IMG/VR virus record: IMGVR_UViG_3300031576_000016
Coordinates: 29,579-93,578 of that record
Strand: one strand, 5' to 3'
DNA from: a virus
Length of the DNA: 64,000 nucleotides
The notes beneath the pieces are model-generated. The model was not told the origin of the DNA. It searched no databases and worked only from the letters and a program-made list of their open reading frames with translations. Positions 30,685-61,130 of the stretch are shown here, piece after piece. The position numbers were made by a program, and so were the translations under genes. The stretch's first letter is position 1, and every line of letters starts with the position of its first letter.

Positions 30685-33600
30685 ATGCCTTTTACTCGTA
30701 CAACATTTCTTGGGGCCAGCATTCGTGGATTCAATACCGCGATTGGTTGGAACGGCCAACAAAGCACACTGACGGTGCAGTTGGTTGTTGACCCGCTGAA
30801 CGGCGACGTGTTCAATCCGCCGCCGGTGGGTACGCCCATTTATTTCCAGGTTGGTTACTTCTACTTTTTCGGTCTCCTACAAAAATGGGAGAAGAAGAAC
30901 GACAAAGACGGACTCCCTACATATGAAGCCGTCTGTGTGGACCCGAAGGAAATTCTCGATGGTGCCCAGGTCATCCTCGGCGGCTACAGCGGCACGACTA
31001 CTGGCATCCCAAATCTCTACAACGCTTTTGGGTTTTGGGAATCGACCGGCTTCGGCAACTCGTATACGAACGAAAGTGGTATGCCGTGGTTCCGAGCTAT
31101 GTCGGCTCTCACCACGATGGCCAACACTTTTGGCGGCACGCCGTTTGGCGGGCCACTCAATTTTCGCGGCTACACCTACAGTCTCGACCTGAGCCGACTG
31201 CCAGTTCCGCCGAGCTACTATCGCGTCGGCAATGTGTCAGCCAGCGTGCTCGAACTCATCCAGCAGATATGTGAGGACGCTCAGTGCGACTTCACAGTGG
31301 AGTTGTTCGGCTACCAGATTCGTATTCGTACTGTCAGCCGTTTCGCCCAGCCGCCGCTCGGCACCATCAACGCCATCACGAGCACCAATTGGGGCGGTAC
31401 GGTCGTTCGTTCCAACAGTGGCCTCGAATGCCGCAACGAACTGACAACGGCCTTCCTGGTCGGCGGCGATGTCAACACCCTGTATGAGACACAGGGCATT
31501 GTGCAATTCTGGGGCTATGACCTTGCCGGTTCCCCGCTCACTGGCACGGATACCTATTTCTGGTATCCGCGCATGGTTCTCAATCCGCCGGCTCCGGCCT
31601 ATGCGGTTGATGCCAAGAAGCGTTTCCCTGTGCCGGTCATCTCTGCCACTCGTCCAGCAGATTGGGACGCCTACCGTTGGCCTGACCCTGCTCCAACAGG
31701 GCCTGGTACTCAGAACGGCTACATCTGGGCTCGCAAGTCGCTGCGGATTACCGCAGCCACGAACGCTACCCCCATTGTTGTGACAACGGCAGAGCCGCAC
31801 TTATTCACAACCGGAACAAAGGTCACAGTTGCTGGTTGCCTTGGCAACACAGCCGCTAATGGTGCCGCCTGGGTCATCACCTATCGCACAGCGACTTCTT
31901 TTTCTCTGGACACATCGGCTGGCAACGGCAACTACACAGGCAGTGGAACTGTCATTTGGGACACGGTCGGTGCTGGCATTCCGGCCGGCGTTGTCAACAT
32001 TGGTCGCTTCACCTGGAGCAATCAACGTCAAGGCGGCGAGCTTCTCCAGGGCGAGAGCATGACTCTGAACGCGACCGCCGTCGCGGGCATTCTTGGCAGC
32101 ACGACCTACGACTGTAGCACGTTCGAGATGCGGTGTGCTCAGGCGAACATGGAGTCCTGGTCGAGCTACATGCACGCAGTCCGACCGGATATGGCTCAAC
32201 GGATTGGCCTGACGAGCCGCGTGCGAAACATGCACCCGGTTGAAGGCGTGGTGCTGCCGCGCGATGCTTTCAACGATGATGCAGCGGCTGTTCAACGTCG
32301 GCAACTGATGGCTGTGCAGGGTGACCTCGCACAAAAAGAAGTGGCGATGTGGCAATTCGTCAAGAGCCGCGCTGACGAGTTCATGGGCAAGAAGTTCCTG
32401 GTTGGCTTGCCATTCATTTTGCAGGCTCAGGACCCGGAGACGCTGCATCTGAAGTCGAGCTACAAGGTCACCGATGCCGGCTATCTGCCTGAAGGTGCCA
32501 CACCGCTCGGACTCACGTCGCTCAACGAAGACACGTTCAAGACGCAAGATGGGCGGTTCAAAGCGTTCGTCAAGTTCGACAACCTGGTTGGTGCTGACTT
32601 CGAGAAGATTTCCGCCCAGGGCACGGTGGTCGAGAACAACGTCCTCTTCATGGATGTGCAGGTCCAGCCGAATATCGTGTTCGCGCCGGCCCCGTCTGCC
32701 GTTGTGACATTGAGCGGCCCATTGCTCGACAAGGTCGATAGCGGCGTCACTGGCGACATGAGCATCATAGCGGCGATTCTTCAGATGAATCCGCCGCAAG
32801 CTCAGCAGGTATTGCAAGCCGGTCAGCAGGGAACGGTGGGTGTGCGGTGCTCGCCGCGAACACGCAACCCCGCTGCCATTGCTGTTCCTCTGCAAAGCAA
32901 CATCATGACCTATGGGCCGTGGTGGGCCGTAGGCGCGCCTGGCAAGGTGAAGTTCGAGCACGACCAGGGTCTGACGCCGTGGAACTACGGCAGCTACACG
33001 AACATGGCCAATGCCGGCCTCGCGCGTGTCGGCACCATCATCAGCACCATGCAGGTCTCGGAAGCTGGCACGATTGAACTCGCCGGCGCTCCAATGCGGC
33101 CAATGGGCGGCATGTTCAGCCTGGGCGACGTGCTCAGTGCCAACGGGCCGAACATGACGAACATGGACGTGAACTACAACACCAATGGTGTCACGACCTC
33201 GTTCCACTTCAAGACATACACTCCGCGTTTCGGCGTGTTCACCAAGGGCTACACAGAGCGGCTGAAGAAGCTCGGTCAGACGGCCCAGGAACTGCGTCGG
33301 GCAATGCGACTGTCGTTCAAGGAACAACAGGAAGTCCAGACTGCCCAGGGCGAGGCTGCTCGAACAAACAGGCGCTTCTTGGAAGGCGCGCCGCCGGCCG
33401 TTCTTCGCGAGTCGCCGAGTGAGCTATTCGTGGCTCGTCTATTTCACGACCCCAATGGCGGGGCAACCCGCGTGGGCGTAGCCGTCACAACGACCAAGGA
33501 AGGCTTGGAGTTCGTCAACGCTGCCACAGATGGCATCCGTGATGCGAAGGCTGATGAAGCATACCAGTCCACGGCTGCAATGGACCTGGCCGGCTTGTTC

Positions 33601-36222
33601 CGGCCGTTTTCGACGCGGCACAACGCGAAGTTCATGTCGCATTACCAGGACCCTACCCTTCACTGCTCAGTTGACCGTTACTCATTGGACCCCTGGAAGG
33701 ACTACAATGATATCGAAGCATTCCTATGGGGTGAGGAATATGAGGGGCTTCACGCATATCGACGTGGTGTTCGTAGAGATGCTCGTGCTGTCGGGCTCCG
33801 TGCGCCATTGGTCATGAGCGGCTGGGGTTACGATACCGATGGTAGGCCAACTCCACGTCTCGAAGGCGTTATTGTTGGCATTAGTGGTGGCTGTCCATAT
33901 GTCGTTTATAGTCCAGGGCACGGTCTCGCTAGTGGCTATAAGCTTTTCATTTCCGAATCGAGCAACACCACAATCAACGACCGCGAGTGGCCGGTCACAG
34001 TTATTGATGCTGACTACTTTGAGCTTACTGGCTCTTGTGTCAGTCCGGATGATAGCAGTAGTAGTTATAGCGGGTCGGAATCGTGGTCTTCTAATAGCTC
34101 ATCGAGTTCTGTTTCAGCTTCTTCTGATTCGTCGCTGAGTTCTTCTTCGACTTACTCTTCGAGTTCTACTTCAAGTTCGAGTAGCTCTGCTTCGAGTGAC
34201 AGTGACTCTTCCGCTTCGAGTATGTCCGATGCGTCCTCGGGCTCTACTGGTAGCAGCGAGTCGTCCTCCAGTGTACTCAATACGTCCGAGTCCAGCTATA
34301 CACAGAGCAGTAGTTCGTCCTGGAGCACTTCGAGCGATTCGTCGTCTACGTCGCTTTCGTCTTCGTCCGACTCCAGCTTCAGTTCGGTGAGCAATGCGTC
34401 TTCTGATAGCACCGAGTCACAAAGCTCTCTGTCTGAGTCGTCGTTGTCAAAAGAGACAACGTCACTTGGTATCTGGGTTGCTCTCGATTGGGAACCGGGC
34501 ACGCTATATCATTCGGAAAAGTGGAAGACAGGACCATACGATGCGATGTGGGACGCAAGGCGTGGCGTGTGGACTTCGCACGATATCGTGAAGGGCGTAG
34601 CCTCAAGCGCAATCCCTGGCGATATGGGAGGCGCAGCCAATGTCGTTGTGTGGCATAATCACGATGAAGCCACGTCATGGACTATGCAGTGTTGGAACTG
34701 GATGGAAGAAGATATTCCATCGGGCGCAAGGGTCTACTGCATGTACAATGTGGTGGATAATAGGTGGTATGCGTTCAGTAGCTCGGTCCCGGAGGAAGAT
34801 ACTTCGTCTAGTAGCTCACAGAGCAGCCAATCCAACTCGTCAGAGTCTTCCAGCACTCTATCGTCCATATCAAGTTCGACTGAGTCTTCCGCATCATCAC
34901 CAAGTGGATGTGGAGACTGCTACGCATTGCCTGACTGCTGGGCAGTTACTTTTGATGGCCTGGTCAATAGAAATTGTCAAGGGGATTCGTCCAGTAGTAA
35001 TGTGTACTTTGAGCCGGGCTCGGAAGTGCCAAATGGCTGCGGTCAATTCAATGATACGTTCGTCATGGAACGAACCGCTTTCTGCCAATGGGACTCAAAT
35101 CCAATTTGGACTGGATGCGGTGCTGACCCGCGACAAGTTCGACTTGAGTATGGCGTAGACCCAGATGGCATTTCTCCGGATATTGGTTGGTATCTTTGGA
35201 TTCCGGGCTCCAGTGTTCTAAGTGAAGTCGTCTACTTCATGGAAGAGGACCTATGGGATTGCACCGGCGTGAATATGATGGTGCAACTCAGAACTGCACC
35301 ACCGTTAGATGTTGATTGTAAGCCTTGGCCGCTTACTGTCATAGTTTCAGCTGTTTCCTGCTTTGACCTTGACTCTAGCAGTTCGTCGTCATACTCTTCT
35401 AGTTCGTCTTCATCAAGCTACACACAAACGAGTTCGTCTTCGCCTTCGAGTTCTAGTTCCGATTCGACATCTGCCTCATCTACGTCTATGTCGAGTTCGA
35501 CGCAAAGCTCTGGGTCTGAAAGCTCTGTATCAGAATCGTCGTCTAACTCAACATCTTCGGCATCGTCTGTTAGCTCGATGTCTGAAAGCTCAGCGTCGGA
35601 ATCAACAGCATCATCTGATTCGACTTCGTCGGGCTCGTCAAGTTCTTCGTCGAGTTCGCAAAGTTCGCAATCAGAATCCTCGGCGTCTGAGTCCTCAAAT
35701 TCAGAATCTACTGCGTCGTCTCATAGCACTGATTCTTCGTCCACGGCCTCTTCTACGAGTTCAGCATCGACGGTTGTCTCAAATTCGTCCTGGAGTAGCA
35801 CATCGTCAAGTCTAGCAAATTCTGAATCTAGTCAATCCGTTTCCGGTGAAGGATGTATCCTCTACGGACCGCCGGCTACGGTATCGAATGGTTGGCTAAG
35901 ACTTCAAAAATATGGCGTAAGCGTGGTTGATGGAGAACTTGTTTGTGTCAATTCGGGCTTTGACGAAATTTATGTGTGTTGCAATAATGGTGAAGACAAC
36001 AGTAGTTCGAGTTCGCATAGCATCTCTTCGCCGAGCAGCTTGACAAGCGGTAGTTCGCAGAGTCGTTCTGGCGGACATGATTTTGATAATCCTCATAGCA
36101 TCCGTGGCAACATACAACTTGCTTTTGTGCCTTCTGAAGCCAACGAAGCCAAAAAAGTTTTCATTGGCATTGTGCCGATGGCAAACGTAGAATTTGATGA
36201 CGATGAGTCGTCAGGAGTATAA
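30685..36222 (+). CDS. Tail tip/hub protein with beta-barrel, Cys-rich and poly-Ser regions (1845 aa)
   Basis: Hub-like N-terminus (SVLELIQQICEDAQCDF). Two ITAATNATPIVVT..H-type barrels (about 31747-31953 and 33871-34035), four Ser tracts, and a Cys-rich domain at about 34906-35362. Confidence 0.7.
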   Translation: MPFTRTTFLGASIRGFNTAIGWNGQQSTLTVQLVVDPLNGDVFNPPPVGTPIYFQVGYFYFFGLLQKWEKKNDKDGLPTYEAVCVDPKEILDGAQVILGGYSGTTTGIPNLYNAFGFWESTGFGNSYTNESGMPWFRAMSALTTMANTFGGTPFGGPLNFRGYTYSLDLSRLPVPPSYYRVGNVSASVLELIQQICEDAQCDFTVELFGYQIRIRTVSRFAQPPLGTINAITSTNWGGTVVRSNSGLECRNELTTAFLVGGDVNTLYETQGIVQFWGYDLAGSPLTGTDTYFWYPRMVLNPPAPAYAVDAKKRFPVPVISATRPADWDAYRWPDPAPTGPGTQNGYIWARKSLRITAATNATPIVVTTAEPHLFTTGTKVTVAGCLGNTAANGAAWVITYRTATSFSLDTSAGNGNYTGSGTVIWDTVGAGIPAGVVNIGRFTWSNQRQGGELLQGESMTLNATAVAGILGSTTYDCSTFEMRCAQANMESWSSYMHAVRPDMAQRIGLTSRVRNMHPVEGVVLPRDAFNDDAAAVQRRQLMAVQGDLAQKEVAMWQFVKSRADEFMGKKFLVGLPFILQAQDPETLHLKSSYKVTDAGYLPEGATPLGLTSLNEDTFKTQDGRFKAFVKFDNLVGADFEKISAQGTVVENNVLFMDVQVQPNIVFAPAPSAVVTLSGPLLDKVDSGVTGDMSIIAAILQMNPPQAQQVLQAGQQGTVGVRCSPRTRNPAAIAVPLQSNIMTYGPWWAVGAPGKVKFEHDQGLTPWNYGSYTNMANAGLARVGTIISTMQVSEAGTIELAGAPMRPMGGMFSLGDVLSANGPNMTNMDVNYNTNGVTTSFHFKTYTPRFGVFTKGYTERLKKLGQTAQELRRAMRLSFKEQQEVQTAQGEAARTNRRFLEGAPPAVLRESPSELFVARLFHDPNGGATRVGVAVTTTKEGLEFVNAATDGIRDAKADEAYQSTAAMDLAGLFRPFSTRHNAKFMSHYQDPTLHCSVDRYSLDPWKDYNDIEAFLWGEEYEGLHAYRRGVRRDARAVGLRAPLVMSGWGYDTDGRPTPRLEGVIVGISGGCPYVVYSPGHGLASGYKLFISESSNTTINDREWPVTVIDADYFELTGSCVSPDDSSSSYSGSESWSSNSSSSSVSASSDSSLSSSSTYSSSSTSSSSSSASSDSDSSASSMSDASSGSTGSSESSSSVLNTSESSYTQSSSSSWSTSSDSSSTSLSSSSDSSFSSVSNASSDSTESQSSLSESSLSKETTSLGIWVALDWEPGTLYHSEKWKTGPYDAMWDARRGVWTSHDIVKGVASSAIPGDMGGAANVVVWHNHDEATSWTMQCWNWMEEDIPSGARVYCMYNVVDNRWYAFSSSVPEEDTSSSSSQSSQSNSSESSSTLSSISSSTESSASSPSGCGDCYALPDCWAVTFDGLVNRNCQGDSSSSNVYFEPGSEVPNGCGQFNDTFVMERTAFCQWDSNPIWTGCGADPRQVRLEYGVDPDGISPDIGWYLWIPGSSVLSEVVYFMEEDLWDCTGVNMMVQLRTAPPLDVDCKPWPLTVIVSAVSCFDLDSSSSSSYSSSSSSSSYTQTSSSSPSSSSSDSTSASSTSMSSSTQSSGSESSVSESSSNSTSSASSVSSMSESSASESTASSDSTSSGSSSSSSSSQSSQSESSASESSNSESTASSHSTDSSSTASSTSSASTVVSNSSWSSTSSSLANSESSQSVSGEGCILYGPPATVSNGWLRLQKYGVSVVDGELVCVNSGFDEIYVCCNNGEDNSSSSSHSISSPSSLTSGSSQSRSGGHDFDNPHSIRGNIQLAFVPSEANEAKKVFIGIVPMANVEFDDDESSGV
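34048..34464 (+). repeat. Poly-serine low-complexity tract
   Basis: About 140 aa, mostly Ser, encoded by mixed TCN/AGY codons. Confidence 0.9.
35371..35844 (+). repeat. Poly-serine low-complexity tract
   Basis: About 158 aa, mostly Ser with some Thr/Glu/Ala. Shorter tracts at about 34801-34905 and 36001-36069. Confidence 0.9.
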
Positions 36223-36225
36223 ATT

Positions 36226-36858
36226 ATGTCAGTGCCAATCATTGTCACATATCAGGGCGAGCAACTAGCTCTCCGAAAAATGTTTCAGTTGAATGACGGC
36301 GGCGTTGGTTACGGCGCTGCGTTCTTCCTGATTCGACTGTTCACCAACAACATCGTCCCAACAAAAGACCATATTTGGAGTGATTTTACAGAAGCCGCTT
36401 ATTCTGGCTACGCAATCGAAACATTTGCTCCTGGCAACTTTACGATTCCAGCCACGGTTGACGGCTTGACATTTACTGTAGCTGACAAAGCGATGTTTCA
36501 GCACAATGGCGGTGCCACAGCAGAAGTTGTCTACGGATGGCTCATGGAGTACGCTTGTCCTGGCTACCCAAGCGGAAGTATTGCAACGCCTACTTTTCGG
36601 CACTTGGTTTGTGCCCAACGTTTTGCTGAGCCAAAAACAATGGCTGCCGTCAGCGATATTATCATCGTTGATTTGAAGTATTACGCTTGCATTGCTTGTC
36701 CAGAAGACCCGGAGAGTTACGGCAACCTATCTTCTCTGTCTCGGTCTTCAAGTTCAAGTTCTTCTTCGTCTAGCTCTTCTAGCACTTCGAGTTCTTCTAG
36801 CTCGACTGCTTCTAGTGATTCTTCATCCGCATCGTCGGAATCATCATCGGTTTTGTAA
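36226..36858 (+). CDS. Virion structural protein with C-terminal poly-Ser tail
   Basis: IRLFTNNIVP....FTEAAYSGYA motif seen in tail-associated proteins; the last 40 or so residues are almost all Ser. Confidence 0.65.
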   Translation: MSVPIIVTYQGEQLALRKMFQLNDGGVGYGAAFFLIRLFTNNIVPTKDHIWSDFTEAAYSGYAIETFAPGNFTIPATVDGLTFTVADKAMFQHNGGATAEVVYGWLMEYACPGYPSGSIATPTFRHLVCAQRFAEPKTMAAVSDIIIVDLKYYACIACPEDPESYGNLSSLSRSSSSSSSSSSSSSTSSSSSSTASSDSSSASSESSSVL

Positions 36859-37533
36859 ATGGCACACATCATCATTCCGGCTCGTCTTCATTCTGTTCGC
36901 TTCCCTCGCAAGTTGCTCGCGCACTTTCGCGGCAAACCAGTTCTCCAGCATACTTGGGAGGCCGCTAAAGCGACCGGCTTAGATGTTGCAATAGCTACGG
37001 CTGATACGGAAATAGCCGAAGCTGCGCTTCGGTGGGGAGCCGAGGTCTACATGACTGGCAGATATAAAGATGGCACCAGCCGCGTAGCGGCTCTTGCCGC
37101 AACTCTCAATTTGGAGTGCGTTATCAATTTGCAAGGAGACGAGCCAACCGTCAAACCGGAAGATTTGCTAAGACTCGCCGAGTTCATGCGGACTCATCAC
37201 GAGTATTATATGGTGACTCTGGCTGCACCATTCGGATTTGGCCAAAATTACGACGACCGCAACCTAGTCAAGGTGACATCAGCCGGTTACCGAGCCCTTT
37301 ACTTCAGCCGGGCTCCAATCGAAGGTGCCATGAAACACGTCGGTGTGTATGGGTTTCATTGCCCCATCCCGCCACGAGATGAGCAATCACCACTGACGAT
37401 TGCCGAAGGTCTCGAACAAATGTTTTGGCTTGAAAGCGGCGTGCGTATCGGTGTCTTGAAAGTGGACGAGCCAACTTACGCGGTGGACGTTCCCGAGGAT
37501 TTGAAATGGTTAGAGACCCACGCGAATGCGTGA
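36859..37533 (+). CDS. kdsB: CMP-Kdo synthetase-like cytidylyltransferase
   Basis: IIIPARLHSVRFPRKLL, GTSRV, INLQGDEP, ALYFSRAPI, HVGVYGF, EGLEQ, VDVPEDL. Confidence 0.9.
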   Translation: MAHIIIPARLHSVRFPRKLLAHFRGKPVLQHTWEAAKATGLDVAIATADTEIAEAALRWGAEVYMTGRYKDGTSRVAALAATLNLECVINLQGDEPTVKPEDLLRLAEFMRTHHEYYMVTLAAPFGFGQNYDDRNLVKVTSAGYRALYFSRAPIEGAMKHVGVYGFHCPIPPRDEQSPLTIAEGLEQMFWLESGVRIGVLKVDEPTYAVDVPEDLKWLETHANA

Positions 37534-38534
37534 ACCTTGGGCCAATCATAGGCACCAGGATATTTTCCGGCGGCGGGGCTGAAGCAGTTCATGCTTGCAA
37601 AGACCAGTCCATCAAAGAGACAACCTGGCCTCAGTGCGAGAAGTGTCCACTCTTCTGCACATCGGCTGCCACAACGCCAAACAACAAGCCAAAAAAGACC
37701 AAGGTTGCACCGGAGCCGCCTACAGGCTTGATTGTGAATCAGGCCAAGCAGGTCATGCCGCTTGCGAATACTTGGTCCAATGGCCATATCTTCCTGACTC
37801 TGTCCGGGCCAAGCCTGAAGCTTGTGCCACCGGAGGCCATGACAGAGCGCGGCATCGTTTCGTTCGGCGTCAACAACTCGGCAACTGTCATTCGTCCTAC
37901 ATTCTGGACCTATGGCGACAAGGGCGACAAATTCCACAACGTTATCTGGGAAGACCCGGGCATCATCAAATTTATGCCGGTACGCGGCTGGCATAAAAAG
38001 CATCCGCATATGGTTCGTAACAAGAACTCGGACGGAAGCTTCGCGACAACAGATAAGCAGGGAAGGTTCATGCCAGGCGTGCTGGGCTATGAACGCAACG
38101 CCGTCTTCAACCCTGCCGTGTGGCTTCATGAACCAACCTGCAATTGGGGCAACTCCAAGAAGGCTGCTGAAGAGAATAAGCTGCCCCACATTCTAAACAT
38201 CATGTTCGTCGTATTCCGCCTGAGCTATTACCTTGGTTTCCGACACATATATCTCTTGGGCTGCGACTTCAATATGGTCGTGGACCAGCCTTATGCGTTC
38301 GACGAGAACAAGAATCCGGGGGCCTGCACCAGCAATAACGGCACGTACCTCAAGCTCAACTATATGTTTTCCCTGCTGAAACCACATTTCGATGAGGTCG
38401 GCCTTCAAGTGTTCAATTGCACGCCAGGGTCCGGTTTCCGAACTTTTTCACAACTGCCATTCAAGGAGGCAATGGACAATGCCAAACGAAACGTCCCCGC
38501 AACCATCGACACCAAGGGCTGGTATGATTCGTGA
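37506..38534 (+). CDS. Maf/DUF115-like (sialyltransferase-like fold) transferase with a Cys-rich N-terminus
   Basis: SGPSL, FGVNN, LGFRHIYLLGCDF and VFNCTPGS motifs. Confidence 0.65.
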   Translation: MVRDPRECVNLGPIIGTRIFSGGGAEAVHACKDQSIKETTWPQCEKCPLFCTSAATTPNNKPKKTKVAPEPPTGLIVNQAKQVMPLANTWSNGHIFLTLSGPSLKLVPPEAMTERGIVSFGVNNSATVIRPTFWTYGDKGDKFHNVIWEDPGIIKFMPVRGWHKKHPHMVRNKNSDGSFATTDKQGRFMPGVLGYERNAVFNPAVWLHEPTCNWGNSKKAAEENKLPHILNIMFVVFRLSYYLGFRHIYLLGCDFNMVVDQPYAFDENKNPGACTSNNGTYLKLNYMFSLLKPHFDEVGLQVFNCTPGSGFRTFSQLPFKEAMDNAKRNVPATIDTKGWYDS

Positions 38535-38739
38535 CCATGTTGCGAAGGTAACCAGTGCCAACAACTATATGGTTGTGACTTACGTGTTGGTAGACGGTGT
38601 CCTCAAGATGAACCGTTTCACCAGCAACTTTCCCAAGGGCGATTTCAATCGCTCGTTGACCCTGCTCCAGAACAACCTGACAGAGGAACTGGAGAAGGAC
38701 CAGATGAAGGTAAAAAATGATGAGCCGAAGCCTGGATAA
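38524..38739 (+). CDS. Hypothetical protein
   Basis: Overlapping, coupled ORF starting at ATG 38524. Confidence 0.55.
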   Translation: MIRDHVAKVTSANNYMVVTYVLVDGVLKMNRFTSNFPKGDFNRSLTLLQNNLTEELEKDQMKVKNDEPKPG

Positions 38740-39061
38740 GGTTTGGGGCGTGGACCACACGCTCTACAGTTCCGGCGTTGCCGAACTTCATGTCCTTGAG
38801 ATGAAGAAGGGCGGCTACACATCCAATCATCTTCATCGTGTCCGCGCCAGTTACCTTCGAGTTATCGAGGGGGTGCTGAAGGTCAAGATTCACTATGACC
38901 ACCTGGTCATTACCAGGGCTCTGGAAATCGGGCAAGACATCACTATTCCGCTGGGGTATATCCACCAGCTTGAAGCGGTTACCGACTGCAAGGTGTTGGA
39001 GCTATACGAACCGAATCAGGATGGTGACATTGAGCGGTTCGACGAAGGGGGCGTGAAGTGA
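38717..39061 (+). CDS. Cupin-domain sugar isomerase/epimerase
   Basis: KVWG, SNHLH, IPLGYIHQL, DIERF. Confidence 0.75.
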   Translation: MMSRSLDKVWGVDHTLYSSGVAELHVLEMKKGGYTSNHLHRVRASYLRVIEGVLKVKIHYDHLVITRALEIGQDITIPLGYIHQLEAVTDCKVLELYEPNQDGDIERFDEGGVK

Positions 39062-39744
39062 TTGACTTCACAACCTTTCTTGCCGTCGATAGGCACCACC
39101 TAAAGGAGCTTCGTCATGTGTGGCCTGGGTGGATGCGGTATCGGCCTGAGCTACTGCAACGGCCGCTCATCATTGCTCGCGATGCTCCCATAGCTCCAGC
39201 GGAGCTTGACTTCCTCGAACATCCGAACATGAGGAGCTATGCCTGGAACTATGATGGTGACCAGCGCCGCAAGATGCTGGCAAGCTTTGTGCTGCTGGCT
39301 CCGCGCGTGGTGCAGACACCGTGGTTCCTGAAGCTTGATACGGATGTGATTGCCACACAAGCAAACGCTTCGTGGTGCAGTGAGGATTTGATAGCGGGCT
39401 CGCCAGCGTTTGTGTCGAATCCGTGGGGTTACACAAAGCCGGCCACAGCTATCAATACTTTGGACGATTGGGGAGATACGGTTCCGGAGCTTGCCAAGTT
39501 TGGACGATTGAAACTACCGTTCGACCCAACTGCCACACTTGTCAAGACTCCGGGACGGATTATCTCCTGGTGCTTCTTCGGACGCACCGATTGGTGTTCG
39601 TGGGCAGCCGGCCTATGCAACTGCAACCTTCCTGTTCCGAGCCATGACACATACCTCTGGTATGTCGCTCGACGCAGCGATGCCAAGTTCACAACCGTCA
39701 AAATGACAACCTTCGGATGGTCGCATCAGCGACTGAAAGTCTAG
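39058..39744 (+). CDS. Putative GT-A glycosyltransferase
   Basis: TPWFLKLDTD (DxD) in a GT cluster. Confidence 0.55.
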   Translation: MIDFTTFLAVDRHHLKELRHVWPGWMRYRPELLQRPLIIARDAPIAPAELDFLEHPNMRSYAWNYDGDQRRKMLASFVLLAPRVVQTPWFLKLDTDVIATQANASWCSEDLIAGSPAFVSNPWGYTKPATAINTLDDWGDTVPELAKFGRLKLPFDPTATLVKTPGRIISWCFFGRTDWCSWAAGLCNCNLPVPSHDTYLWYVARRSDAKFTTVKMTTFGWSHQRLKV

Positions 39745-39745
39745 C

Positions 39746-40459
39746 ATGTTCTCGGAAGTCGTATGTCTATTGGTTGACAAACGGTGGGGACGCAGGAAAA
39801 TTATTCAAAACCAGGTTCGTTACTACCTTGGCATAAAGCCTCGCTTCTTTGTGGTTGGAAACGGCGAGATACTAAGTCAAGAGACATATGACCGCATAGA
39901 TACGCCTATCCCGGCGACAATCGCGCAAAGTGGCGAAAAGTGGCTACGTTTGCCGCATTCCTACAATGCGTTCTTATGTTTTCAGGAGATTGTCCGAGCA
40001 GCCAAGCAGCTTGGCCAAGAGAGTATTTTGTTACTCGAAGACGATGCCATTTTTGTCGATGATTTCAGCCAATCCTTTGAAAGGGCGAAGTCGGATATTG
40101 AGAAATTGGAAATCCCCTGGGATATTTTCTACCTCGGCGGCAGCCACAGGGCTGCCCGCACACTGCCTCTAACAGAGAACCTGTTCCGCGTCAATGGCAC
40201 AGCCTGCTTTCATGGTGTCGCACTGAGGAATACTGTCTACGACTCTATTTTGAATTTGCCGATGTGCGGACCTATCGACTTTGTTACGGCTCAATGCTTA
40301 CACTCCAAATGCGTAACCGTTGCCGCCTGGCCGAACCTGATTATCCAAACACGCGGCTGGAGTTTCTGTGAGGAACGTCGGGTGTGCCGACATGGGAGAT
40401 GGTTCACTAAAGGTCGGGTAGTTTATACTCTGGAGGAGCTAGGTGTCACAACATCATAG
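39746..40459 (+). CDS. GT25-like glycosyltransferase
   Basis: VVCL..DKR, ILLLEDDA, WDIFYLGG, PID. Confidence 0.75.
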   Translation: MFSEVVCLLVDKRWGRRKIIQNQVRYYLGIKPRFFVVGNGEILSQETYDRIDTPIPATIAQSGEKWLRLPHSYNAFLCFQEIVRAAKQLGQESILLLEDDAIFVDDFSQSFERAKSDIEKLEIPWDIFYLGGSHRAARTLPLTENLFRVNGTACFHGVALRNTVYDSILNLPMCGPIDFVTAQCLHSKCVTVAAWPNLIIQTRGWSFCEERRVCRHGRWFTKGRVVYTLEELGVTTS

Positions 40460-41018
40460 AATCTTGGCTCGGGTCCTCAAACAGATTTGCCGCCGTCAGC
40501 AGCAGGTGCTGGGTGCAGAGATAGGCGTCTACAAAGGCGACCTGTCCCTTTCTCTGCTCACCGCTTTCCCCAACCTGCATCTTCACCTGGTTGACATATG
40601 GAAGGCAGTGCCGGCCGATTCCGCATACGCTCTGAGCGGCGATGGCGCGGCCAAGCAGAGTGAAGACGAGCACCTGGCCAACAAGCTGGAGACGCTCCAG
40701 AAGATTGAGCCGTTCAAGGACCGTGCTACTGTCTGGCACTGCACATCCGCAGAAGCCGCCCACGGCCTCATCACTCAGGGCTCGAAGGGCAAACTCGACT
40801 TCGTATTCATCGACGGCGACCACACCAAGGCAGCCGTCGCGCATGACATCCTGAAGTGGTGGGCTGCCGTCCGCAAGGGCGGGCTTATCACAGGCCACGA
40901 CTACGGGCACCGTCGCCACACTGGTGTCAAAGAGGCAGTGGATGAGTTTGTCAACAAGCACAAGCTCAAGTTCCACGTTGGCCGGGCAAGCGTGTGGGTC
41001 ATTCAAAAGCCGACCTGA
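40443..41018 (+). CDS. Class I SAM methyltransferase (Methyltransf_24-like)
   Basis: GAEIGVYKG, LVDIW, DFVFIDGDH, GGLITGHDY. Confidence 0.85.
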   Translation: MSQHHRILARVLKQICRRQQQVLGAEIGVYKGDLSLSLLTAFPNLHLHLVDIWKAVPADSAYALSGDGAAKQSEDEHLANKLETLQKIEPFKDRATVWHCTSAEAAHGLITQGSKGKLDFVFIDGDHTKAAVAHDILKWWAAVRKGGLITGHDYGHRRHTGVKEAVDEFVNKHKLKFHVGRASVWVIQKPT

Positions 41019-41058
41019 CAAAAGACAAACAATTCCCTTCGGTCGGAAGGGGGGTGCG

Positions 41059-41871
41059 GTGGGAAAAAGTAAAGGCATTCTTTATTTCATTGTGGCGAGC
41101 AAGCGAGCAGTCGTCGCGGCCGTGAGCCTATGTGCGCTTCGCAAAGTCTATGACGGCCCGGTTCACATCGCCACTTCAACGTTCAGCGACTGGCACAAGA
41201 TAGCTCATCAAATCGTTGCGGACAAGCGCTTGAATCTGACGTGCAGCGATGTGCCGATTGTGCAGGTGAGGCGGCACGCGGTTCACACCAGTAAGACGTG
41301 GCTCCATCGGTATACGCCGTTTGACAGCACACTCTTCCTTGACGCGGACACCATCCCCGTTGGCGACTTCGATGAGGTCTGGCCTGTTGGCGACGAGATG
41401 GTTCTGACGCAGTTCTCGAACTGGTACAGTTGCGGTCAGCGCATCAAGAACCGCATTCATTGGTGGGACGGCGTGAGGCCGGACCTGGTGAAGCCGGCCA
41501 TCGACGGAGCCTATGCTGCGGTGAACACCGGTGTCCTGGGTTTCACGCGGAACACAGTGATGTTGGAACCGTGGCACCAACTGACAGTCGAAGGGGCCAA
41601 GACATTCATCCCAGATGAGATTGCTGCGCAACTCATCTACTTCAAATACGAGCATCGGTTGCTCGATGACCGCTTCAACTGCTCGCCGCAGTTCGGAGCG
41701 AACAAGAACGATGCCCGCATCTGGCACTGTCACGGTGGCAAGCATCTTCATCCGACCACGGCACCGCTGTGGACGCATACCCTCCAGGAATGCTGGCGGA
41801 AAAACATTGGCCACATCCAGTCGTGGATGACCCAACAAGAGCGCGAAAGGTACGCGAAATGTATATCGTAG
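41059..41871 (+). CDS. GT8/GT-A-like glycosyltransferase
   Basis: KTW...TPFDSTLFLDADT, VNTGV, DE, IWHCHG. Confidence 0.7.
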   Translation: MGKSKGILYFIVASKRAVVAAVSLCALRKVYDGPVHIATSTFSDWHKIAHQIVADKRLNLTCSDVPIVQVRRHAVHTSKTWLHRYTPFDSTLFLDADTIPVGDFDEVWPVGDEMVLTQFSNWYSCGQRIKNRIHWWDGVRPDLVKPAIDGAYAAVNTGVLGFTRNTVMLEPWHQLTVEGAKTFIPDEIAAQLIYFKYEHRLLDDRFNCSPQFGANKNDARIWHCHGGKHLHPTTAPLWTHTLQECWRKNIGHIQSWMTQQERERYAKCIS

Positions 41872-42785
41872 ACGTGATTGACCCCGCCGAGTATTCGACG
41901 GTGACCGTCCACTTCTCCCTTCAAGACCTCTGCAAGAAGATGGATTGGGAGTATGTGCCTGTTGAGCTATGGACCGCTCACAAGAACAACCCGCCTCAGC
42001 CACAGAGACAACACGACAAGGGCATCATCGTGTTCGCGGCCGCGCGGCTGAAGATTGACCGCGTGAAGACTTCGGACTTGAAGGCTGCCTACCCGACAGC
42101 GAAGCTCGTGTGCCTGGGCTCGGATACCATCTGGTACTTGAAAGGCCGGTCAACAACCGGCATGGTAGACCGCATCAAGAACACGGAGTTCATGACTCCG
42201 TATGATTGCGATTTGTTCCTGGACCTGATTGATGAGGTCGTTGACGCCTACAACTCCAAGGGCATCAACAGCGACACCTGGATGTGGTCGGTCTCCGAGC
42301 GTCTCTTGAACGACTTCCTGAGCCGGCCGCGCGGGGAGCCCACCAAGGACTTCATCGGATTGTGGCACCTGAACAACATGACCAGGCACAACATCTGGCA
42401 CACCATCGACCGCGCCGGCAAGACCTCTATCCGCAGCGGCCAGGTCAACTACAATCTGGACGAACTCTTCTCTGCTTATGCCTCGTGTCGGTTCACCATC
42501 GGGACCACGTCACCTTCCTGGACGACTCCCTACCGGACGATGAAGGGCTTCCGGGACTGGATTGGCCCGCCCTGCGGTAGCGTGCTCATCTACGACAACC
42601 ATCCGGACATCCTTCGGAAGTACACGTGCTGCCCGACTTACGATTACAACCGCCCCGACGAAATCATCACGCTCGCGAAGACCATCGACCGCGAAGCGGT
42701 CCTGCGCGAACAGGTGCAGTGGGCAAAGGACTACTGCATCGACAAACAGTTCCTTCGTCTCTTTCGGAAGCACAAGCTCGTATGA
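41859..42785 (+). CDS. GT-B (CgeB-like) glycosyltransferase
   Basis: C-terminal YASCRFTIG...MKGFRD.....GSVL pattern; GT cluster context. Confidence 0.5.
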   Translation: MYIVDVIDPAEYSTVTVHFSLQDLCKKMDWEYVPVELWTAHKNNPPQPQRQHDKGIIVFAAARLKIDRVKTSDLKAAYPTAKLVCLGSDTIWYLKGRSTTGMVDRIKNTEFMTPYDCDLFLDLIDEVVDAYNSKGINSDTWMWSVSERLLNDFLSRPRGEPTKDFIGLWHLNNMTRHNIWHTIDRAGKTSIRSGQVNYNLDELFSAYASCRFTIGTTSPSWTTPYRTMKGFRDWIGPPCGSVLIYDNHPDILRKYTCCPTYDYNRPDEIITLAKTIDREAVLREQVQWAKDYCIDKQFLRLFRKHKLV

Positions 42786-43504
42786 ACGTCGAGTTCGTCA
42801 CCCATTGTTGGCGCTACAGCCGGTTGCTCTGCTACCAGTTGTCGTCGTTCCATCTCTTCGCACCGCCTTCGGTAACCGTCACCATCTGCTACGCAGAAGA
42901 CGATGCGCCCACGGCCGACATGGTCCGCTATTTCGTTTGGGGTCTCAAGGGCGAGGCGTCCAACGGGCCAGTATGGAATCCGATGCCGATGAGCAGGGAA
43001 GAGGTCTGTCGCCGTGCCATCGGCCGCAACCGCGCGGCTCTGGCGTCGAAAGCGGACTGGCTCTGGTTCGCTGACTGCGACTATTGGTTCGGCGCGAGGC
43101 TGTTCCTGGCCCTCTCGACCCTGGCTGGCATTGCCCCCGAGCACAACCTGGTCTATCCTGGCGAGATTGTCCAGTGTTCCCAGGCTGAGGGGGACCGCCT
43201 GATTGACCTGGTGACCGGCCCGGACGTGAAGACGCTCTGCCCGACCTGCGATTCATTCCCCACGCACGCCTTCTGGAAGGCCATAGGAGGCGTCCAAATC
43301 GTCCGAGGGGAGTGGGCACGCCTCAACGGGTACTGCAAGGCTCACAAGCGGCACCAGAGGCCCACAGGGGCCTGGGCACGGAACGTGGAAGATGTGACGT
43401 TTAGGCAAGACATGGGGACTGCCGGGCACCGCATCAAACTCCCGGACGTGGTGAGGATTCGACATGGCCGGCGCGGGGGCTATGGCGGGGACGTGCTCAA
43501 CTGA
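42782..43504 (+). CDS. GT2-like glycosyltransferase
   Basis: RAIGRNRAA, WLWFADCD, GGVQI, EDV.F. Confidence 0.65.
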   Translation: MNVEFVTHCWRYSRLLCYQLSSFHLFAPPSVTVTICYAEDDAPTADMVRYFVWGLKGEASNGPVWNPMPMSREEVCRRAIGRNRAALASKADWLWFADCDYWFGARLFLALSTLAGIAPEHNLVYPGEIVQCSQAEGDRLIDLVTGPDVKTLCPTCDSFPTHAFWKAIGGVQIVRGEWARLNGYCKAHKRHQRPTGAWARNVEDVTFRQDMGTAGHRIKLPDVVRIRHGRRGGYGGDVLN

Positions 43505-43746: not shown

Positions 43747-43787
43747 AACGAAAGAGGCCGGCATTGCCGGCCTCCATCGTTTCATTT
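43745..43787. terminator. Probable bidirectional terminator at the strand convergence
   Basis: GAGGCCGGC-ATT-GCCGGCCTC (43754-43774) with A-rich left and T-rich right flanks. Confidence 0.7.
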
Positions 43788-44149
43788 CACTTCTCGGTTG
43801 GTTCGGGCTCACCCCGATACTTCGTCCAACCCTTGCCCTTGCTGTCGTAGGTTCCTTCTTTGCGACTCGGCTTGCCCTGAGCGGTGAGCTTGCGAATCGG
43901 GAACAAGTGCCCCTTCTTCGCCTTGCTCTGGCCCAGGCTCAGTCGAGCGCTACAGTCCAGGCACTGGTACTCGTAGTAGTCGTCGCCGTTGACCGTGCGG
44001 ACCGCGAACCGAAGGTTCGTCTTCTTGCACGCGCCGCACTCACGCTCACCAAACACTTCCTGAGTGTCAGCAAGCAGCTTGAAGAGTTCGGCCGGCGTTC
44101 CAGCTTCAAGCTCGAAGCTGACCAGCGGCGTTGCGAATGTTGCCTTCAT
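43787..44149 (-). CDS. Zinc-ribbon hypothetical protein
   Basis: CGAC...CLDC; adjacent to the putative SSAP. Confidence 0.6.
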   Translation of the reverse strand: MKATFATPLVSFELEAGTPAELFKLLADTQEVFGERECGACKKTNLRFAVRTVNGDDYYEYQCLDCSARLSLGQSKAKKGHLFPIRKLTAQGKPSRKEGTYDSKGKGWTKYRGEPEPTEK

Positions 44150-44213
44150 TGAACAAAAGCCCTCAAAAGTTTTCGCCAAAGTTTCTCAAGAAATCAGCGC
44201 GTGGCGAGCCCGC

Positions 44214-45038
44214 TTACTTCTTCCAATTCGGGTCATAACCCTTTACGTCATCAGGGATTTTCGTCGGGTCGTTCTGCAAAGAACTCAGGTGTTGAATCAT
44301 CTTCGCAGCAGTGCCGTGCGGAACGTCGTCGATGGACTTGTACTTGCGGCTGCCGGCGTTGATGTAGCCAAGGACGCTGATGTCGCACCGTTTGCACAGA
44401 GCCACGATGAACTGGACCTGGCTGGGAGCGATGACGCCGTTGACGCCGCTTTCTTCGAGCGGAACCTTGGTCTTCTCTTCGGCGGCGATGACGCGCTGAA
44501 GCTGAAGGGCCTTCCGGAGGCAGCGGGCTTCGGCGCGAGTGGCAGCTGTCGAACACGGATAGCGAGCGAACTCAAGCTCGGTGTTGCCGTAGAACACGTC
44601 GGCCACGTCGGAGAACTTCACCTTGATGGCTCCCTGACCTTCAGCCAGGTCCTCGGGACGGCACCACAGGAACTTCAGCTTGTACACGACGGTCGCGACG
44701 GAGAGCTTGCCGCCGGAGACTTCATCGACCAAGACGTGGGGCGCGGTGATGACCTGGCAGGTGCTCTCGATGATGGGGCCGAGCAGAAGGCGAGCCACGC
44801 GCCGGAGACCGGCGACGAACGGGTTGCCTTCGTTGTCCACTTCGTCCGGCTGGAACTTGGAAAGCACATAGTCGGACCAAGCCGGGTCGGTCATGGTCGG
44901 AGCTTCTTGAACCGGTGCCTTCTCCTCTTCCTGCTCATCGGGCTCCAGGTCAGCCACGGTTTCGAGTAGAGCGGAGTCGTCTTGCGGCTCACAGTTCTCC
45001 AATAGGGAATCCGGTTTCGTCGTTTTTCGTTCTGGCAT
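44214..45038 (-). CDS. Putative ssDNA-annealing protein (Rad52/Sak-like)
   Basis: A.TRAEARCLRKAL motif plus a small C-terminal helical domain. Confidence 0.45.
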   Translation of the reverse strand: MPERKTTKPDSLLENCEPQDDSALLETVADLEPDEQEEEKAPVQEAPTMTDPAWSDYVLSKFQPDEVDNEGNPFVAGLRRVARLLLGPIIESTCQVITAPHVLVDEVSGGKLSVATVVYKLKFLWCRPEDLAEGQGAIKVKFSDVADVFYGNTELEFARYPCSTAATRAEARCLRKALQLQRVIAAEEKTKVPLEESGVNGVIAPSQVQFIVALCKRCDISVLGYINAGSRKYKSIDDVPHGTAAKMIQHLSSLQNDPTKIPDDVKGYDPNWKK

Positions 45039-45312
45039 ACTCTTGCACTCCTTTGCGAATACGTTCGCGGACTTCAACTTCTCGGGGTCGCCCCTTTGTG
45101 GGATGAGGGTGTCGCCCCTTTTTCAACGCTTGCTTCTGTGCTTCGCTGCGGGTTCGTCGTTCCAGACCATGATGCACCAAAGCGCGGCGGACCATGTTCG
45201 GATACGTGCCCTTCTCTTGGGCCAGTTCATAGGTACTTCGATTGCCCAGGACGTATTCCTGCGTAAGATACGCGGCACCGGCTGGGCCCATCAACCAGTC
45301 TTTTACTGACAT
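44989..45312 (-). CDS. HTH + NUMOD3-like DNA-binding protein
   Basis: STYELAQEKGTYPNMVRRAL helix-turn-helix; HPTKGRPREVEVRERI. Confidence 0.55.
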   Translation of the reverse strand: MSVKDWLMGPAGAAYLTQEYVLGNRSTYELAQEKGTYPNMVRRALVHHGLERRTRSEAQKQALKKGRHPHPTKGRPREVEVRERIRKGVQEYARTKNDETGFPIGEL

Positions 45313-45779
45313 AGTCCGACGATTGCCTCGATGTTGAAATCGTCAACAACGTAGGACACGTTGCGATTCCAGCAGTCCTCGATGGCCCGCTGATGCTCTT
45401 TGCTTCGTGCGATGAGTGCGATGTTGGGATTTGCGTAGATAGACTTGAGAGTGGAATAATGCTTGTCCTGTATTCGCAACCACTCCAGGTCCCACACATA
45501 GAAGAGCTTTCTCTTGGGGCCTGGAAACTTCAACACTTTGTCGGCGGTGAGCAACGTCGTAGCAATAATAGTACCGTCGTACCCATATGCTTCGACCAGT
45601 TGCATCGACGCGAAATTCATGGTAGGCACGCAGGGGCGGAACAAGTTCTCGTAGAACGCAATGAAATCTACATCGTGCCGCTGACCCATCAACTGGTTCA
45701 CGCGGGCAATCATAAAGTAGTTCAGTTGTGTTGGTCCGAGATTAGTGACCGCCACTGCGAGCTTTGTACGCTGTGACAT
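45303..45779 (-). CDS. Glycosyltransferase-like N-terminal Rossmann domain protein
   Basis: IIATT...KLFYVWDLEW...IARS pattern of GT-B N-domains. Confidence 0.45.
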   Translation of the reverse strand: MSQRTKLAVAVTNLGPTQLNYFMIARVNQLMGQRHDVDFIAFYENLFRPCVPTMNFASMQLVEAYGYDGTIIATTLLTADKVLKFPGPKRKLFYVWDLEWLRIQDKHYSTLKSIYANPNIALIARSKEHQRAIEDCWNRNVSYVVDDFNIEAIVGLCQ

Positions 45780-45991
45780 TAGATGCCGGCTCCTTCTTCA
45801 AAAAAATCGTTCAGTTCCATAACCACAACTCGTTTGGTATTCCACAACGGTCTCTGCGTTTGCTTGTGACACGTGAGTGTCGCGTTACCATTCGGCTGGT
45901 GCGTCAGAAAACGCCCGCCGGGGCCGACGTTGATTGGAGATACACCACGTTTGATGTTGACCTCGAAATAACAATCGTCATGCACAATCAC
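45779..45991 (-). CDS. Hypothetical protein
   Basis: Coupled on both sides. Confidence 0.55.
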   Translation of the reverse strand: MIVHDDCYFEVNIKRGVSPINVGPGGRFLTHQPNGNATLTCHKQTQRPLWNTKRVVVMELNDFFEEGAGI

Positions 45992-46968
45992 TTGATAAAC
46001 CTCCGGCGGTAGTCGTGAACGGCTTGCCTGATGCCGTGGGACAGTGGCGTCAGAGCGAGTTCACCAAGCGACAGTTTCATGCGGTTGAGCACGAGCCGCT
46101 TGCGTAGTTGGCCGTCTTGCTTCTCTGTGTCCCAGCTAATCTTACCCTCGAAGCCGGCAGTGGAGGCAACCAATGTTGCCAGGTCCTTGATGGATAGTTC
46201 TTGGCCGGTGCCGAGATTGACGGGATAGTCCGACTCGTCGAAGTCCTCCATCGTCTTGACGAGCAATTGTGCTGCGTCTTCCACGTAAAGGAACTCGCGC
46301 ATGGGCCGGCCCGAGCCCCAGAGTGTCACTTCGGTACGATGCTCGGCCACTGCATCGCAGAACTTTTTGATGAGCCCGCCCATGACCTTGGTTCGTTCCG
46401 GGTCGTAGCTGTCGCCGGGTCCATACAAGGTAGTAGGACACGCGCACACGGCATTCAACTGGTACTGCTCGCGATAATAGCGAGAGGCGAGTTGGATGTT
46501 ACGTTTGGCGTAGCCATGACACGCCACGGAGCGATGCGGCTCGCCATCGAAAAAGTATAGTTCGTCAAGCAGTCCTTCTTCGCGGCCGTCTTTGGTCAAG
46601 AATATCTGGTCGTCCGGATAAGCGCAGGAGGCGACGACGGAGACAACCTTCTTGACTTTCGCTTTGGCCGCAATGTCCAGCAGGTAGCAGCCCATGACTG
46701 TGTTGCGCATGAAGATGTCTGCGGGGAACTTCCGGTTGAACTCGATGCCGCCGTTGTAGCCGGCCAGATGGAAGACATAGTCTGGCTGCGTCTTTTGGAA
46801 GCCTCGCACCAGGTCATACGGGTCCATCAAGTTGTGGCCATGTGGCCAGCACATCACTGTGGTGTCGTCCTTGTAGAACTTCTTGCGAAGCCGCTCGATG
46901 AGATGGCGTCCGAGGAAGCCAAAGCCGCCCGTCACAACAATCCTACTGCCGTTGAGGTCGATACTCAC
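45988..46968 (-). CDS. fcl: GDP-L-fucose synthase-like epimerase/reductase
   Basis: TGGFGFLG, HLAGYNGGI, SCAYP, YAKR, LYGPGD, WGSGRPMREFLYVED, DGQLRK. GTG start with AGGAG RBS. Confidence 0.85.
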   Translation of the reverse strand: MSIDLNGSRIVVTGGFGFLGRHLIERLRKKFYKDDTTVMCWPHGHNLMDPYDLVRGFQKTQPDYVFHLAGYNGGIEFNRKFPADIFMRNTVMGCYLLDIAAKAKVKKVVSVVASCAYPDDQIFLTKDGREEGLLDELYFFDGEPHRSVACHGYAKRNIQLASRYYREQYQLNAVCACPTTLYGPGDSYDPERTKVMGGLIKKFCDAVAEHRTEVTLWGSGRPMREFLYVEDAAQLLVKTMEDFDESDYPVNLGTGQELSIKDLATLVASTAGFEGKISWDTEKQDGQLRKRLVLNRMKLSLGELALTPLSHGIRQAVHDYRRRFIK

Positions 46969-51014: not shown

Positions 51015-51047
51015 ACTGTCCTCCTAAGTCAGGGCTCTTTCCCGCTC

Positions 51048-55836: not shown

Positions 55837-55838
55837 GC

Positions 55839-57822: not shown

Positions 57823-57824
57823 TG

Positions 57825-61121: not shown

Positions 61122-61130
61122 AGGTGTTCC

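Follow-up and report, generated by a model that had tools for sequence, protein, structure and literature searches.

Long serine tracts in phage tail genes and an adjoining KdsB/Maf-like cassette: a putative self-glycosylation module of the distal tail

Why should two consecutive tail genes of a phage, both carrying long runs of serine (Ser) codons, be followed directly by a set of sugar-handling genes? The question is raised by a stretch of 64,000 nucleotides (nt), here called the window, which corresponds to positions 29,579 to 93,578 of the IMG/VR virus record IMGVR_UViG_3300031576_000016 and forms its last 64 kb. The record is 93.6 kb long and is estimated to be 61% complete; the host is probably a member of the Planctomycetota. 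The tracts are located in a tail-tip candidate, P0001, and in a small fibre-like protein, P0002, and the cassette that follows starts with the genes of a KdsB-type cytidylyltransferase and of a Maf-like transferase. The answer favoured here, with some reserve, is that the 3' end of the tail operon constitutes a self-glycosylation module for the distal tail of the virion. The phage probably sugar-coats its own tail, because relatives of the transferase adjoin Ser-rich proteins in many other phages.

The whole 93.6-kb record was scanned in six frames for segments with at least 15 Ser per 30 amino acids (aa). Five tracts were detected, all in plus-strand frames and only within the open reading frames (ORFs) 30685-36222 (1845 aa) and 36226-36858 (210 aa), with scan calls at 34018-34464, 34762-34926, 35326-35850, 35980-36090 and 36688-36855; the five tracts that the original prediction, made from the letters of the window alone, had placed in two consecutive tail genes were all recovered. 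Nothing comparable was found in the rest of the record. A marginal 34-aa 'tract', located upstream of the window, was discarded, its frame being apparently non-coding. Together the five tracts contain 254 Ser among 395 residues, at 61-80% Ser each, and Lys and Arg are almost nil. All six Ser codons are used (TCG 65, TCT 62, AGT 40, AGC 33, TCA 32, TCC 22), and tandem DNA repeats within the tracts are only short and weak, which argues that selection acting on the protein, and not slippage, accounts for the Ser. The tracts, the proteins containing them and the first two genes of the cassette are the following:

30685-36222, plus strand: P0001, putative tail-tip/central-fibre protein, 1845 aa; the core comprises aa 1-1057 and 1268-1370
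33856-34485, plus strand: insertion in the P0001 core, aa 1058-1267, made of a small domain of about 65 aa and Ser tract 1
34048-34464, plus strand: Ser tract 1, 139 aa, 61% Ser, within the core insertion of P0001
34801-34905, plus strand: Ser tract 2, 35 aa, 66% Ser, linker beyond the core end of P0001
35371-35844, plus strand: Ser tract 3, 158 aa, 63% Ser, linker among small Cys-rich domains in the C-terminal extension of P0001
36001-36069, plus strand: Ser tract 4, 23 aa, 65% Ser, in P0001
36226-36858, plus strand: P0002, fibre-like, 210 aa; N-terminal domain (aa 1-165) and poly-Ser tail
36730-36849, plus strand: Ser tract 5, 80% Ser, C-terminal tail of P0002
36859-37533, plus strand: KdsB-type cytidylyltransferase (CMP-Kdo synthetase-like), 224 aa; Pfam CTP_transf_3, E 3.5e-30
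37506-38534, plus strand: candidate CMP-ulosonate transferase, Maf-like (MptE/GT42 fold), 342 aa; catalytic-type domain at aa ~85-341

(CMP, cytidine monophosphate; Kdo, 3-deoxy-D-manno-octulosonate.) The junctions between these genes are tight. P0001 and P0002 meet at 36222/36226, P0002 and kdsB at 36858/36859, and kdsB overlaps the transferase gene by 28 nt; as had been predicted, the cassette continues the tail genes without an intergenic gap, and no convincing terminator was found between the two. The GC content is 0.49-0.52 across 34-40 kb, the segment of the Ser tracts and of the first cassette genes, versus 0.55-0.61 elsewhere; this fits an acquired module together with the AT-richer Ser codons.

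If tracts and cassette belong together, they should occur together in other genomes, and they do. The transferase was surveyed in 160 phage and prophage loci, 80 viral and 80 bacterial (71 assessable), the latter almost all from metagenome-assembled genomes of Planctomycetota (Phycisphaerae, Planctomycetaceae, Pirellulaceae). A contrast set was made of 80 viral loci picked by homology to the tail protein and not by the transferase; these were retrieved by an alignment-based search, a single-protein locus search having returned none. Ser tracts of at least 50 aa, the size counted in these comparisons, are present in 61 of the 80 viral loci chosen by the transferase, versus 2 of the 80 chosen by tail-protein homology, and in 56 of the 71 assessable bacterial (prophage) loci holding the transferase. 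The tracts also cluster: same-strand sequence within 2 kb downstream of the transferase (261 kb overall) holds 156 of them, versus 19 in the remaining flank of about 1850 kb. The corresponding densities, about 6 and 0.1 per 10 kb, represent an approximately 58-fold enrichment just downstream of the transferase. When the loci were dereplicated by single-linkage clustering of the transferase domain at 50%, 60% and 80% identity, 6 of 9, 8 of 14 and 16 of 30 clusters, respectively, were tract-positive.

The proteins bearing the tracts differ from one phage to another. Those of six groups, represented by the window, L094, L084, L083/L087, L082 and the L092 type, show no similarity outside the tracts, so that poly-Ser has arisen on at least five unrelated scaffolds beside the transferase. 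The whole module was identified in four siphovirus-like contigs (L082, L083, L084, L094), whose tail genes are unrelated to those of the window: kdsB lies directly upstream of the transferase, and is followed by the cupin, p228, methyltransferase, GT8-like and GT2-like genes described below; their poly-Ser proteins reach 47% Ser over 869 aa. A Planctomycetaceae genome also has the full module; there an apparent negative, L168, turned positive once the flank was extended, since a Ser tract of 265 aa and a homolog of kdsB lie within about 15 kb in the same orientation. In another apparent negative, L131, poly-Ser ORFs are present at other places of the complete 55-kb genome. Conversely, 80 phages with a homologous tail-tip gene were negative within 10 kb for homologs of kdsB, the transferase, the cupin, p228, p315, p292 and P0002, and none of the 40 closest homologs of P0001 contains a 30-aa window with more than 10 Ser. 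A functional link between cassette and tracts is supported by all of these results, i.e. co-occurrence, unrelated scaffolds, a recurrent module and tail relatives lacking both.

Two types of loci deserve a description of their own. The Planctomycetaceae cluster, of about 20 kb (L242:4382-5176 and L242:9972-10667, both on the minus strand; G004:C15), contains the transferase, p228, GT8-like, GT2-like and methyltransferase genes, a second copy of kdsB and a gene for a 649-aa protein with a Ser tract of 265 aa. In L092 (10726-12240), L158 (8753-10267) and about 100 similar loci, the transferase is directly followed by a gene for a Ser/Gly-rich protein of about 500 aa, in which two Ser/Gly-rich tracts flank a Hint (intein-like) domain that starts with Cys and ends with H-N, followed by Asp. 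The gene is at the end of the tail module, the last before host restriction-modification genes, in a large lineage of high-GC prophages of Planctomycetota, mostly Phycisphaerae, which accounts for the majority of the loci surveyed.

What kind of enzyme is the transferase? Searched singly, the 342-aa protein produced faint matches (phrog_4603, 'sialyltransferase', E 1e-4; PDB 9C08, E 0.44). It belongs to a family without a Pfam model of its own, of which an exhaustive search returned 1088 representatives (E<=1e-3), 425 of them at E<=1e-30. The AlphaFold2 model obtained with a 52-sequence alignment has a pLDDT (predicted local distance difference test) of 92.7, versus 31 for the single sequence. 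Cst-II and the Maf glycosyltransferase were its top Foldseek matches, with probability 1.0 each, and VIA-align placed Maf (5MU5) first (Z 13.3 over 198 aa, root-mean-square deviation 3.7), followed by MptE HPPK and Cst-II (10.4 each) and by about twenty bacterial or mammalian sialyltransferase entries at Z 7-9.5. In PDB, the family profile matched only GT42 (Cst-II) chains, at E 0.006-0.013, across the G-P-S and Y-L-x-G-x-D-F regions; the residue aligned to His188 of Cst-II is not His in the profile alignment. D138, D254, Y263 and N304 are invariant in the 52-sequence alignment, and 19 of the 52 members match PF01973, with a best E of 2e-5. The ESM Atlas lists MptE-like and WaaZ_KDO_III clusters as structural neighbours, which is taken as a lead only. 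The three-domain architecture of Maf (about 630 aa) is not found in the 342-aa protein, and no flagellin gene is located beside it. Judged by sequence and model, the protein would act like a CMP-ulosonate transferase of the Maf/GT42 fold, rather than as a canonical Maf.

The first 70 residues of the transferase (37506-37715) are Cys-rich and were confidently modelled as a beta-hairpin region, with four Cys in zinc-ribbon-like spacing. This N-terminus is found only in some family members, and could be an acceptor- or metal-binding addition.

The donor is suggested by the neighbouring gene, and its assignment to kdsB is well supported. Beyond the Pfam match, NCBIfam KdsB models match the protein at E 5e-50 to 7e-30 (PseF, 4e-10), the 13 top PDB matches are all CMP-Kdo synthetases (KdsB/KpsU, E 3e-25; NeuA, 4e-8), and the alignment with KpsU 1GQ9 spans the full length, with motifs in common. 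The scores stay below every curated KdsB cut-off (for TIGR00466, 104 bits versus a cut-off of 155); the protein is a divergent KdsB member, and synthesis of CMP-Kdo is its predicted activity. Neither KdsA nor NeuB was found in the 61%-complete record, so that the phage must take Kdo from its host. The gene abuts that of the transferase in the window and in four phages, and is located in the same cluster in one bacterial genome. Maf enzymes form Ser/Thr-O-Kdo if CMP-Kdo is the donor at hand (Khairnar et al., bioRxiv 10.1101/2020.06.03.131540; PMC11339370). Most simply, the phage KdsB would activate host Kdo, which the transferase would then use. Given that the tracts are glycosylated at all, Kdo may be named as the donor with moderate confidence.

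The scheme that we infer, including its chemistry, acceptor, donor sugar, order of steps and benefit, would run as follows. Late in infection, in the cytoplasm, the KdsB-type enzyme would raise the pool of CMP-Kdo from host Kdo. The Maf-like transferase would then place the ulosonic acid on the poly-Ser hydroxyls of P0001 and P0002, or on a primer sugar present there. GT8-, GT2- and GT25-like enzymes, with p228, might build or extend the glycan, to be modified by the S-adenosylmethionine (SAM)-dependent methyltransferase. The outcome would be a glycan sleeve, extended, hydrophilic and probably acidic, around the linkers between the small Cys-rich domains of the distal tail, and possible benefits are shielding from proteases, stiffening of the linkers and surface mimicry. 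An acidic, brush-like and possibly methyl-capped glycan on the tail had been proposed originally; of that proposal, the functional link between cassette and tracts is upheld by their co-occurrence, and the sugar, its methyl cap, the brush and its purpose retain the conditional standing of the scheme.

A number of observations weigh against this reading. The phage is uncultured, and most tract-positive loci represent one large lineage. No Ser tract accompanies the transferase and p228 of G011, an 81%-complete provirus, and L161, L185 and L206 are tract-negative within the DNA available. Five relatives of the window phage (L072, L057, L061, L027, L069) feature poly-Ser or poly-Thr linkers in their distal tail genes, and no transferase-family member was detectable in their records, a positive control having matched. 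The link is one-directional: Ser/Thr linkers do not need the transferase, and the transferase is nearly always accompanied by them. The identification of Kdo draws on the adjacency of kdsB in six cases, and the hosts of kdsB-less prophages have NeuB-type pathways; all five host genomes tested carry both kdsB and NeuB-type genes, so that the donor cannot be narrowed to Kdo for these prophages. As for the transferase, the original designation as Maf/DUF115-like holds for the fold and fails for the Pfam model, since the protein of the window did not match PF01973 at E<=0.01, nor at E<=1 by translated search. It aligns only to the central domain of Maf (5MU5 residues 254-517), and the N- and C-terminal domains are missing. 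Enzymes directed at glycans (Cst-II; WaaZ-type clusters) also have this fold, so that a glycan or lipopolysaccharide (LPS) might serve as acceptor. Finally, GT8, GT25 and KdsB are classic families of LPS and capsule synthesis.

Linker sites located just past the tail-tip gene in three of these relatives are L057:13840-14043 and 15160-15267, L061:14441-14566 and L072:15793-16038.

Could the cassette be aimed at the host instead? It might remodel host LPS or capsule, as an auxiliary metabolic set that, for example, blocks superinfection, the Ser tracts being unmodified flexible linkers; poly-Ser/Thr linkers are also found in relatives without the transferase. The best solved relative of KdsB, KpsU, is a capsule enzyme, Kdo is a sugar of LPS and capsule, GT25- and GT8-like families are typical of LPS cores, and WaaZ-type Kdo transferase clusters are among the structural neighbours of the transferase, an Atlas lead. 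Moreover, cyanophage kdsA/kdsB have been read as cell-wall modification genes (PMC12801897). Host remodelling leaves unexplained, however, both the ~58-fold adjacency of transferase and Ser-rich ORFs on unrelated scaffolds and the joint absence of tracts and cassette in 80 related phages; nothing points to a conserved metabolic role, because no cassette homolog was found in the 80 related loci. This explanation is regarded as unlikely.

Less probable still is that the Maf-like protein is an assembly or chaperone factor for Ser-rich fibres, or performs some other chemistry, for example of the pyrophosphokinase type as in MptE. Its fold is common to MptE HPPK (Z 10.4), thiamine pyrophosphokinase and SteA, the profile alignment has another residue in place of the catalytic His of Cst-II, and E324 and D415 of Maf could not be assigned counterparts. 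Against this, CMP-sugar transferases are its top matches by both fold and profile, the four invariant residues argue for catalysis, and a CMP-sugar synthetase gene abuts its own in the window and the four phages, with the same cluster in one bacterial genome; we judge the idea very improbable. DNA hypermodification, by which the enzymes would attach Kdo or other sugars to modified cytosines of phage DNA, is hardly credible: phage glycosyltransferase (GT) clusters can install Kdo or heptose on 5-hydroxymethylcytosine, some with cytidylyltransferases, but the GTs described belong to the T4 beta-GT (GT-B) type, a fold other than that of the transferase (bioRxiv 10.1101/2023.12.21.572611), the 61%-complete record matched neither the Tet/JBP dioxygenase model (PF12851, whose control matched nowhere) nor that of C5-cytosine methyltransferases (PF00145), and the linkage to Ser tracts would be left unexplained.

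Self-glycosylation being the preferred explanation, the presumed acceptors may be described more closely. P0001 is preceded by a 6291-aa ORF (10333-29208, putative tape measure) and then by a 489-aa gene, which is syntenic with the P0001 core in 79-80 of the 80 related viral loci. The core has 68 homologs; P0001 itself matches no named Pfam, PHROG or NCBIfam family, and its role at the tail tip is therefore assigned by position. The tail gene had no blastn match in the phage collection, and a second contig, of 194 kb, also encodes P0001. In a MAFFT alignment with 7 homologs, aa 1058-1267 are unique to P0001, and the core restarts at 1268, to end at 1370. Tract 1 is part of an insertion inside the conserved core, and the description of poly-Ser as a protein tail does not apply to it. 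Beyond the core, tracts 2-4 connect small Cys-rich domains in an extension (residues 1371-1845) that is specific to the lineage. Two insertions specific to P0001, at 31681-32040 (aa 333-452) and 33856-34047 (aa 1058-1121), look like the same small beta-barrel domain, duplicated; the former weakly matches Pfam E1_FCCH (E 0.001), which is also among the annotated domains of certain distant homologs. The N-terminal domain of P0002 resembles PF23140 (Gp80, podophage GP4 fibre), with an ESM Atlas score of 0.96 and TM values of 0.70/0.86, a lead only; no sequence homolog of P0002 was found in PHROGs, NCBIfam or the 80 related loci, nor by a word-based search with the N-terminal domain.

The remaining genes of the cassette, and a hairpin located beyond its end, are the following:

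38717-39061, plus strand: small cupin, 114 aa; weak Pfam matches to Cupin_2 (E 1e-3) and MannoseP_isomer (5e-4)
39058-39744, plus strand: p228, with a D-x-D-like motif; D94 invariant and D96 nearly invariant in the family alignment
39746-40459, plus strand: GT25-like protein, 237 aa; Pfam Glyco_transf_25, E 0.0045, below cut-off
40443-41018, plus strand: class I SAM methyltransferase (Methyltransf_24; TylF/O-methyltransferase-like), 191 aa; Pfam E 3.3e-18
40924-41871, plus strand: p315, GT8-like glycosyltransferase; start uncertain, the first start codon past the methyltransferase stop being near 41059
41769-42785, plus strand: p338; likely start ATG 41862
42626-43504, plus strand: p292, GT2-like glycosyltransferase; likely start ATG 42779; last gene of the plus-strand operon
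43753-43775, minus strand: strong GC-rich hairpin, 10-bp stem with 8 GC pairs, between the convergent plus- and minus-strand operons

The cupin, although recognised by weak Pfam matches only, is a conserved partner, with homologs adjoining the transferase in L082, L083, L087, L195, L211 and L220. The commonest partner is p228, homologs of which lie beside the transferase in 5 viral and 10 bacterial loci; its family profile has no PDB match. The methyltransferase is a solid assignment, and homologs are present in the cassettes of L082, L083, L087, L094, L163, L166 and L242. A profile of p315 with 11 homologs matches glycogenin (E 4e-6) and Skp1 alpha-galactosyltransferase, 4 of the 11 members match PF01501, and the D-x-D is invariant. 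Similarly, 6 of 9 members of the p292 family match Pfam Glycos_transf_2, with a best E of 7e-6, and the D-x-D is invariant. No Pfam, PHROG or NCBIfam match was found for p338, nor any homolog in related or transferase-bearing loci. The count of about five GTs given previously is therefore borne out in part: the Maf-like case is strong, the GT8- and GT2-like ones are recognised through family profiles or members, the GT25-like one is weak, and the 228-aa and 307/338-aa proteins match no family.

The only sizeable gap in the cassette, of 182 nt (38535-38716), separates transferase and cupin, and is overlapped by an alternative ORF of 115 aa (38392-38739). The hairpin at 43753-43775 may function as a terminator. 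Beyond it, a second sugar island occupies the minus strand (43787-63445), convergent with the cassette operon; it contains three SDR epimerase/dehydratases, a GHMP kinase, an NTP_transf_3 enzyme, two GT2, three GT4-type enzymes and a Glyco_trans_1_2 protein, and its sugar genes are interleaved with those of PhoH and an AAA_33 kinase.

What would follow, if the preferred explanation is true? A large uncharacterised enzyme family would provide a second, widespread route of virion glycosylation, by which Planctomycetota phages would modify poly-Ser tracts in their tail and fibre proteins, and the Ser-O-Kdo linkage would find its first natural setting. The transferase and its Ser-tract protein could become a tool for dense protein glycoengineering, and the long Ser/Thr 'low-complexity' regions of phage receptor-binding proteins would have to be annotated differently. 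To our knowledge, virion self-glycosylation has so far been documented experimentally for a few mycobacteriophages only, and the Ser-O-Kdo linkage has been seen only where Maf enzymes acted promiscuously in E. coli. E. coli already makes CMP-Kdo. Full-text literature searches returned no account of phage poly-Ser proteins occurring together with Maf-like enzymes or KdsB. A broader proposal is put forward tentatively, and with more doubt than trust: that this is a dedicated natural system for Ser-O-Kdo, or Kdo-capped, glycans, in which a compact Maf-like enzyme, fed by a phage KdsB, puts an acidic eight-carbon sugar on hundreds of serines in disordered tail tracts, and that the family, with about 1000 representatives mostly from phages and prophages of Planctomycetota, is an unrecognised class of poly-Ser O-glycosyltransferases travelling with their substrates.

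How does the module compare with known systems? The serine-rich repeat proteins of Gram-positives (Fap1, GspB, SraP; GtfA/GtfB) share with it very long Ser tracts encoded beside their own cytoplasmic GTs, and in this outline the streptococcal analogy drawn originally is apt. It does not extend to the machinery: the phage lacks a GtfA/B pair by the tracts, an accessory Sec system and a cell-wall anchor, and both enzyme fold and likely sugar differ. Assignment to this system was rejected, as GtfA/B and SecA2/SecY2 have no match among the nine genes that follow the tracts, and GT4-type enzymes are found only in the opposite-strand island. Cst-I/II (GT42) and the WaaZ Kdo III transferase have in common with the phage enzyme the fold and the Y-L-x-G-x-D-F region, WaaZ-type clusters being structural neighbours, but they use lipooligosaccharide or LPS acceptors and have no linkage to Ser-rich proteins; in the profile alignment, the catalytic His of Cst-II is not kept. 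With the KdsB/KpsU synthetases the phage protein shares full-length alignment and family motifs, and it differs in being shorter (224 aa), below the NCBIfam equivalog cut-offs and phage-encoded, in a record without kdsA.

Mycobacteriophage GTs encoded near structural genes glycosylate the phages' own virion proteins (Freeman et al. 2023, as described in PMC12619734); according to the same description, the glycans are carried by the C-termini of capsid and tail-tube subunits, in an actinobacterial host. The gene pattern expected of self-glycosylation, phage GT genes beside structural genes with Ser-rich segments and linked to them across genomes, is found here as well. The present, putative system would differ in that tail-tip and fibre proteins are concerned, whose tracts reach 158 aa, and in its Maf-like enzyme with KdsB and its probable Planctomycetota host. 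Closest in structure, at Z 13.3 over 198 residues, are the Maf flagellin O-glycosyltransferases (M. magneticum 5MU5; C. botulinum, G. kaustophilus). They perform cytoplasmic O-glycosylation of Ser/Thr from CMP-activated ulosonic acids, including Ser/Thr-O-Kdo with CMP-Kdo (10.1101/2020.06.03.131540). In comparison, the phage enzyme is about half the size, consists of the central domain and a Cys-rich N-terminus, and scores below the Pfam model; its acceptor is presumed to be a disordered poly-Ser tract of the tail, rather than a folded flagellin, and it is accompanied by KdsB instead of a Pse/Leg/Neu pathway.

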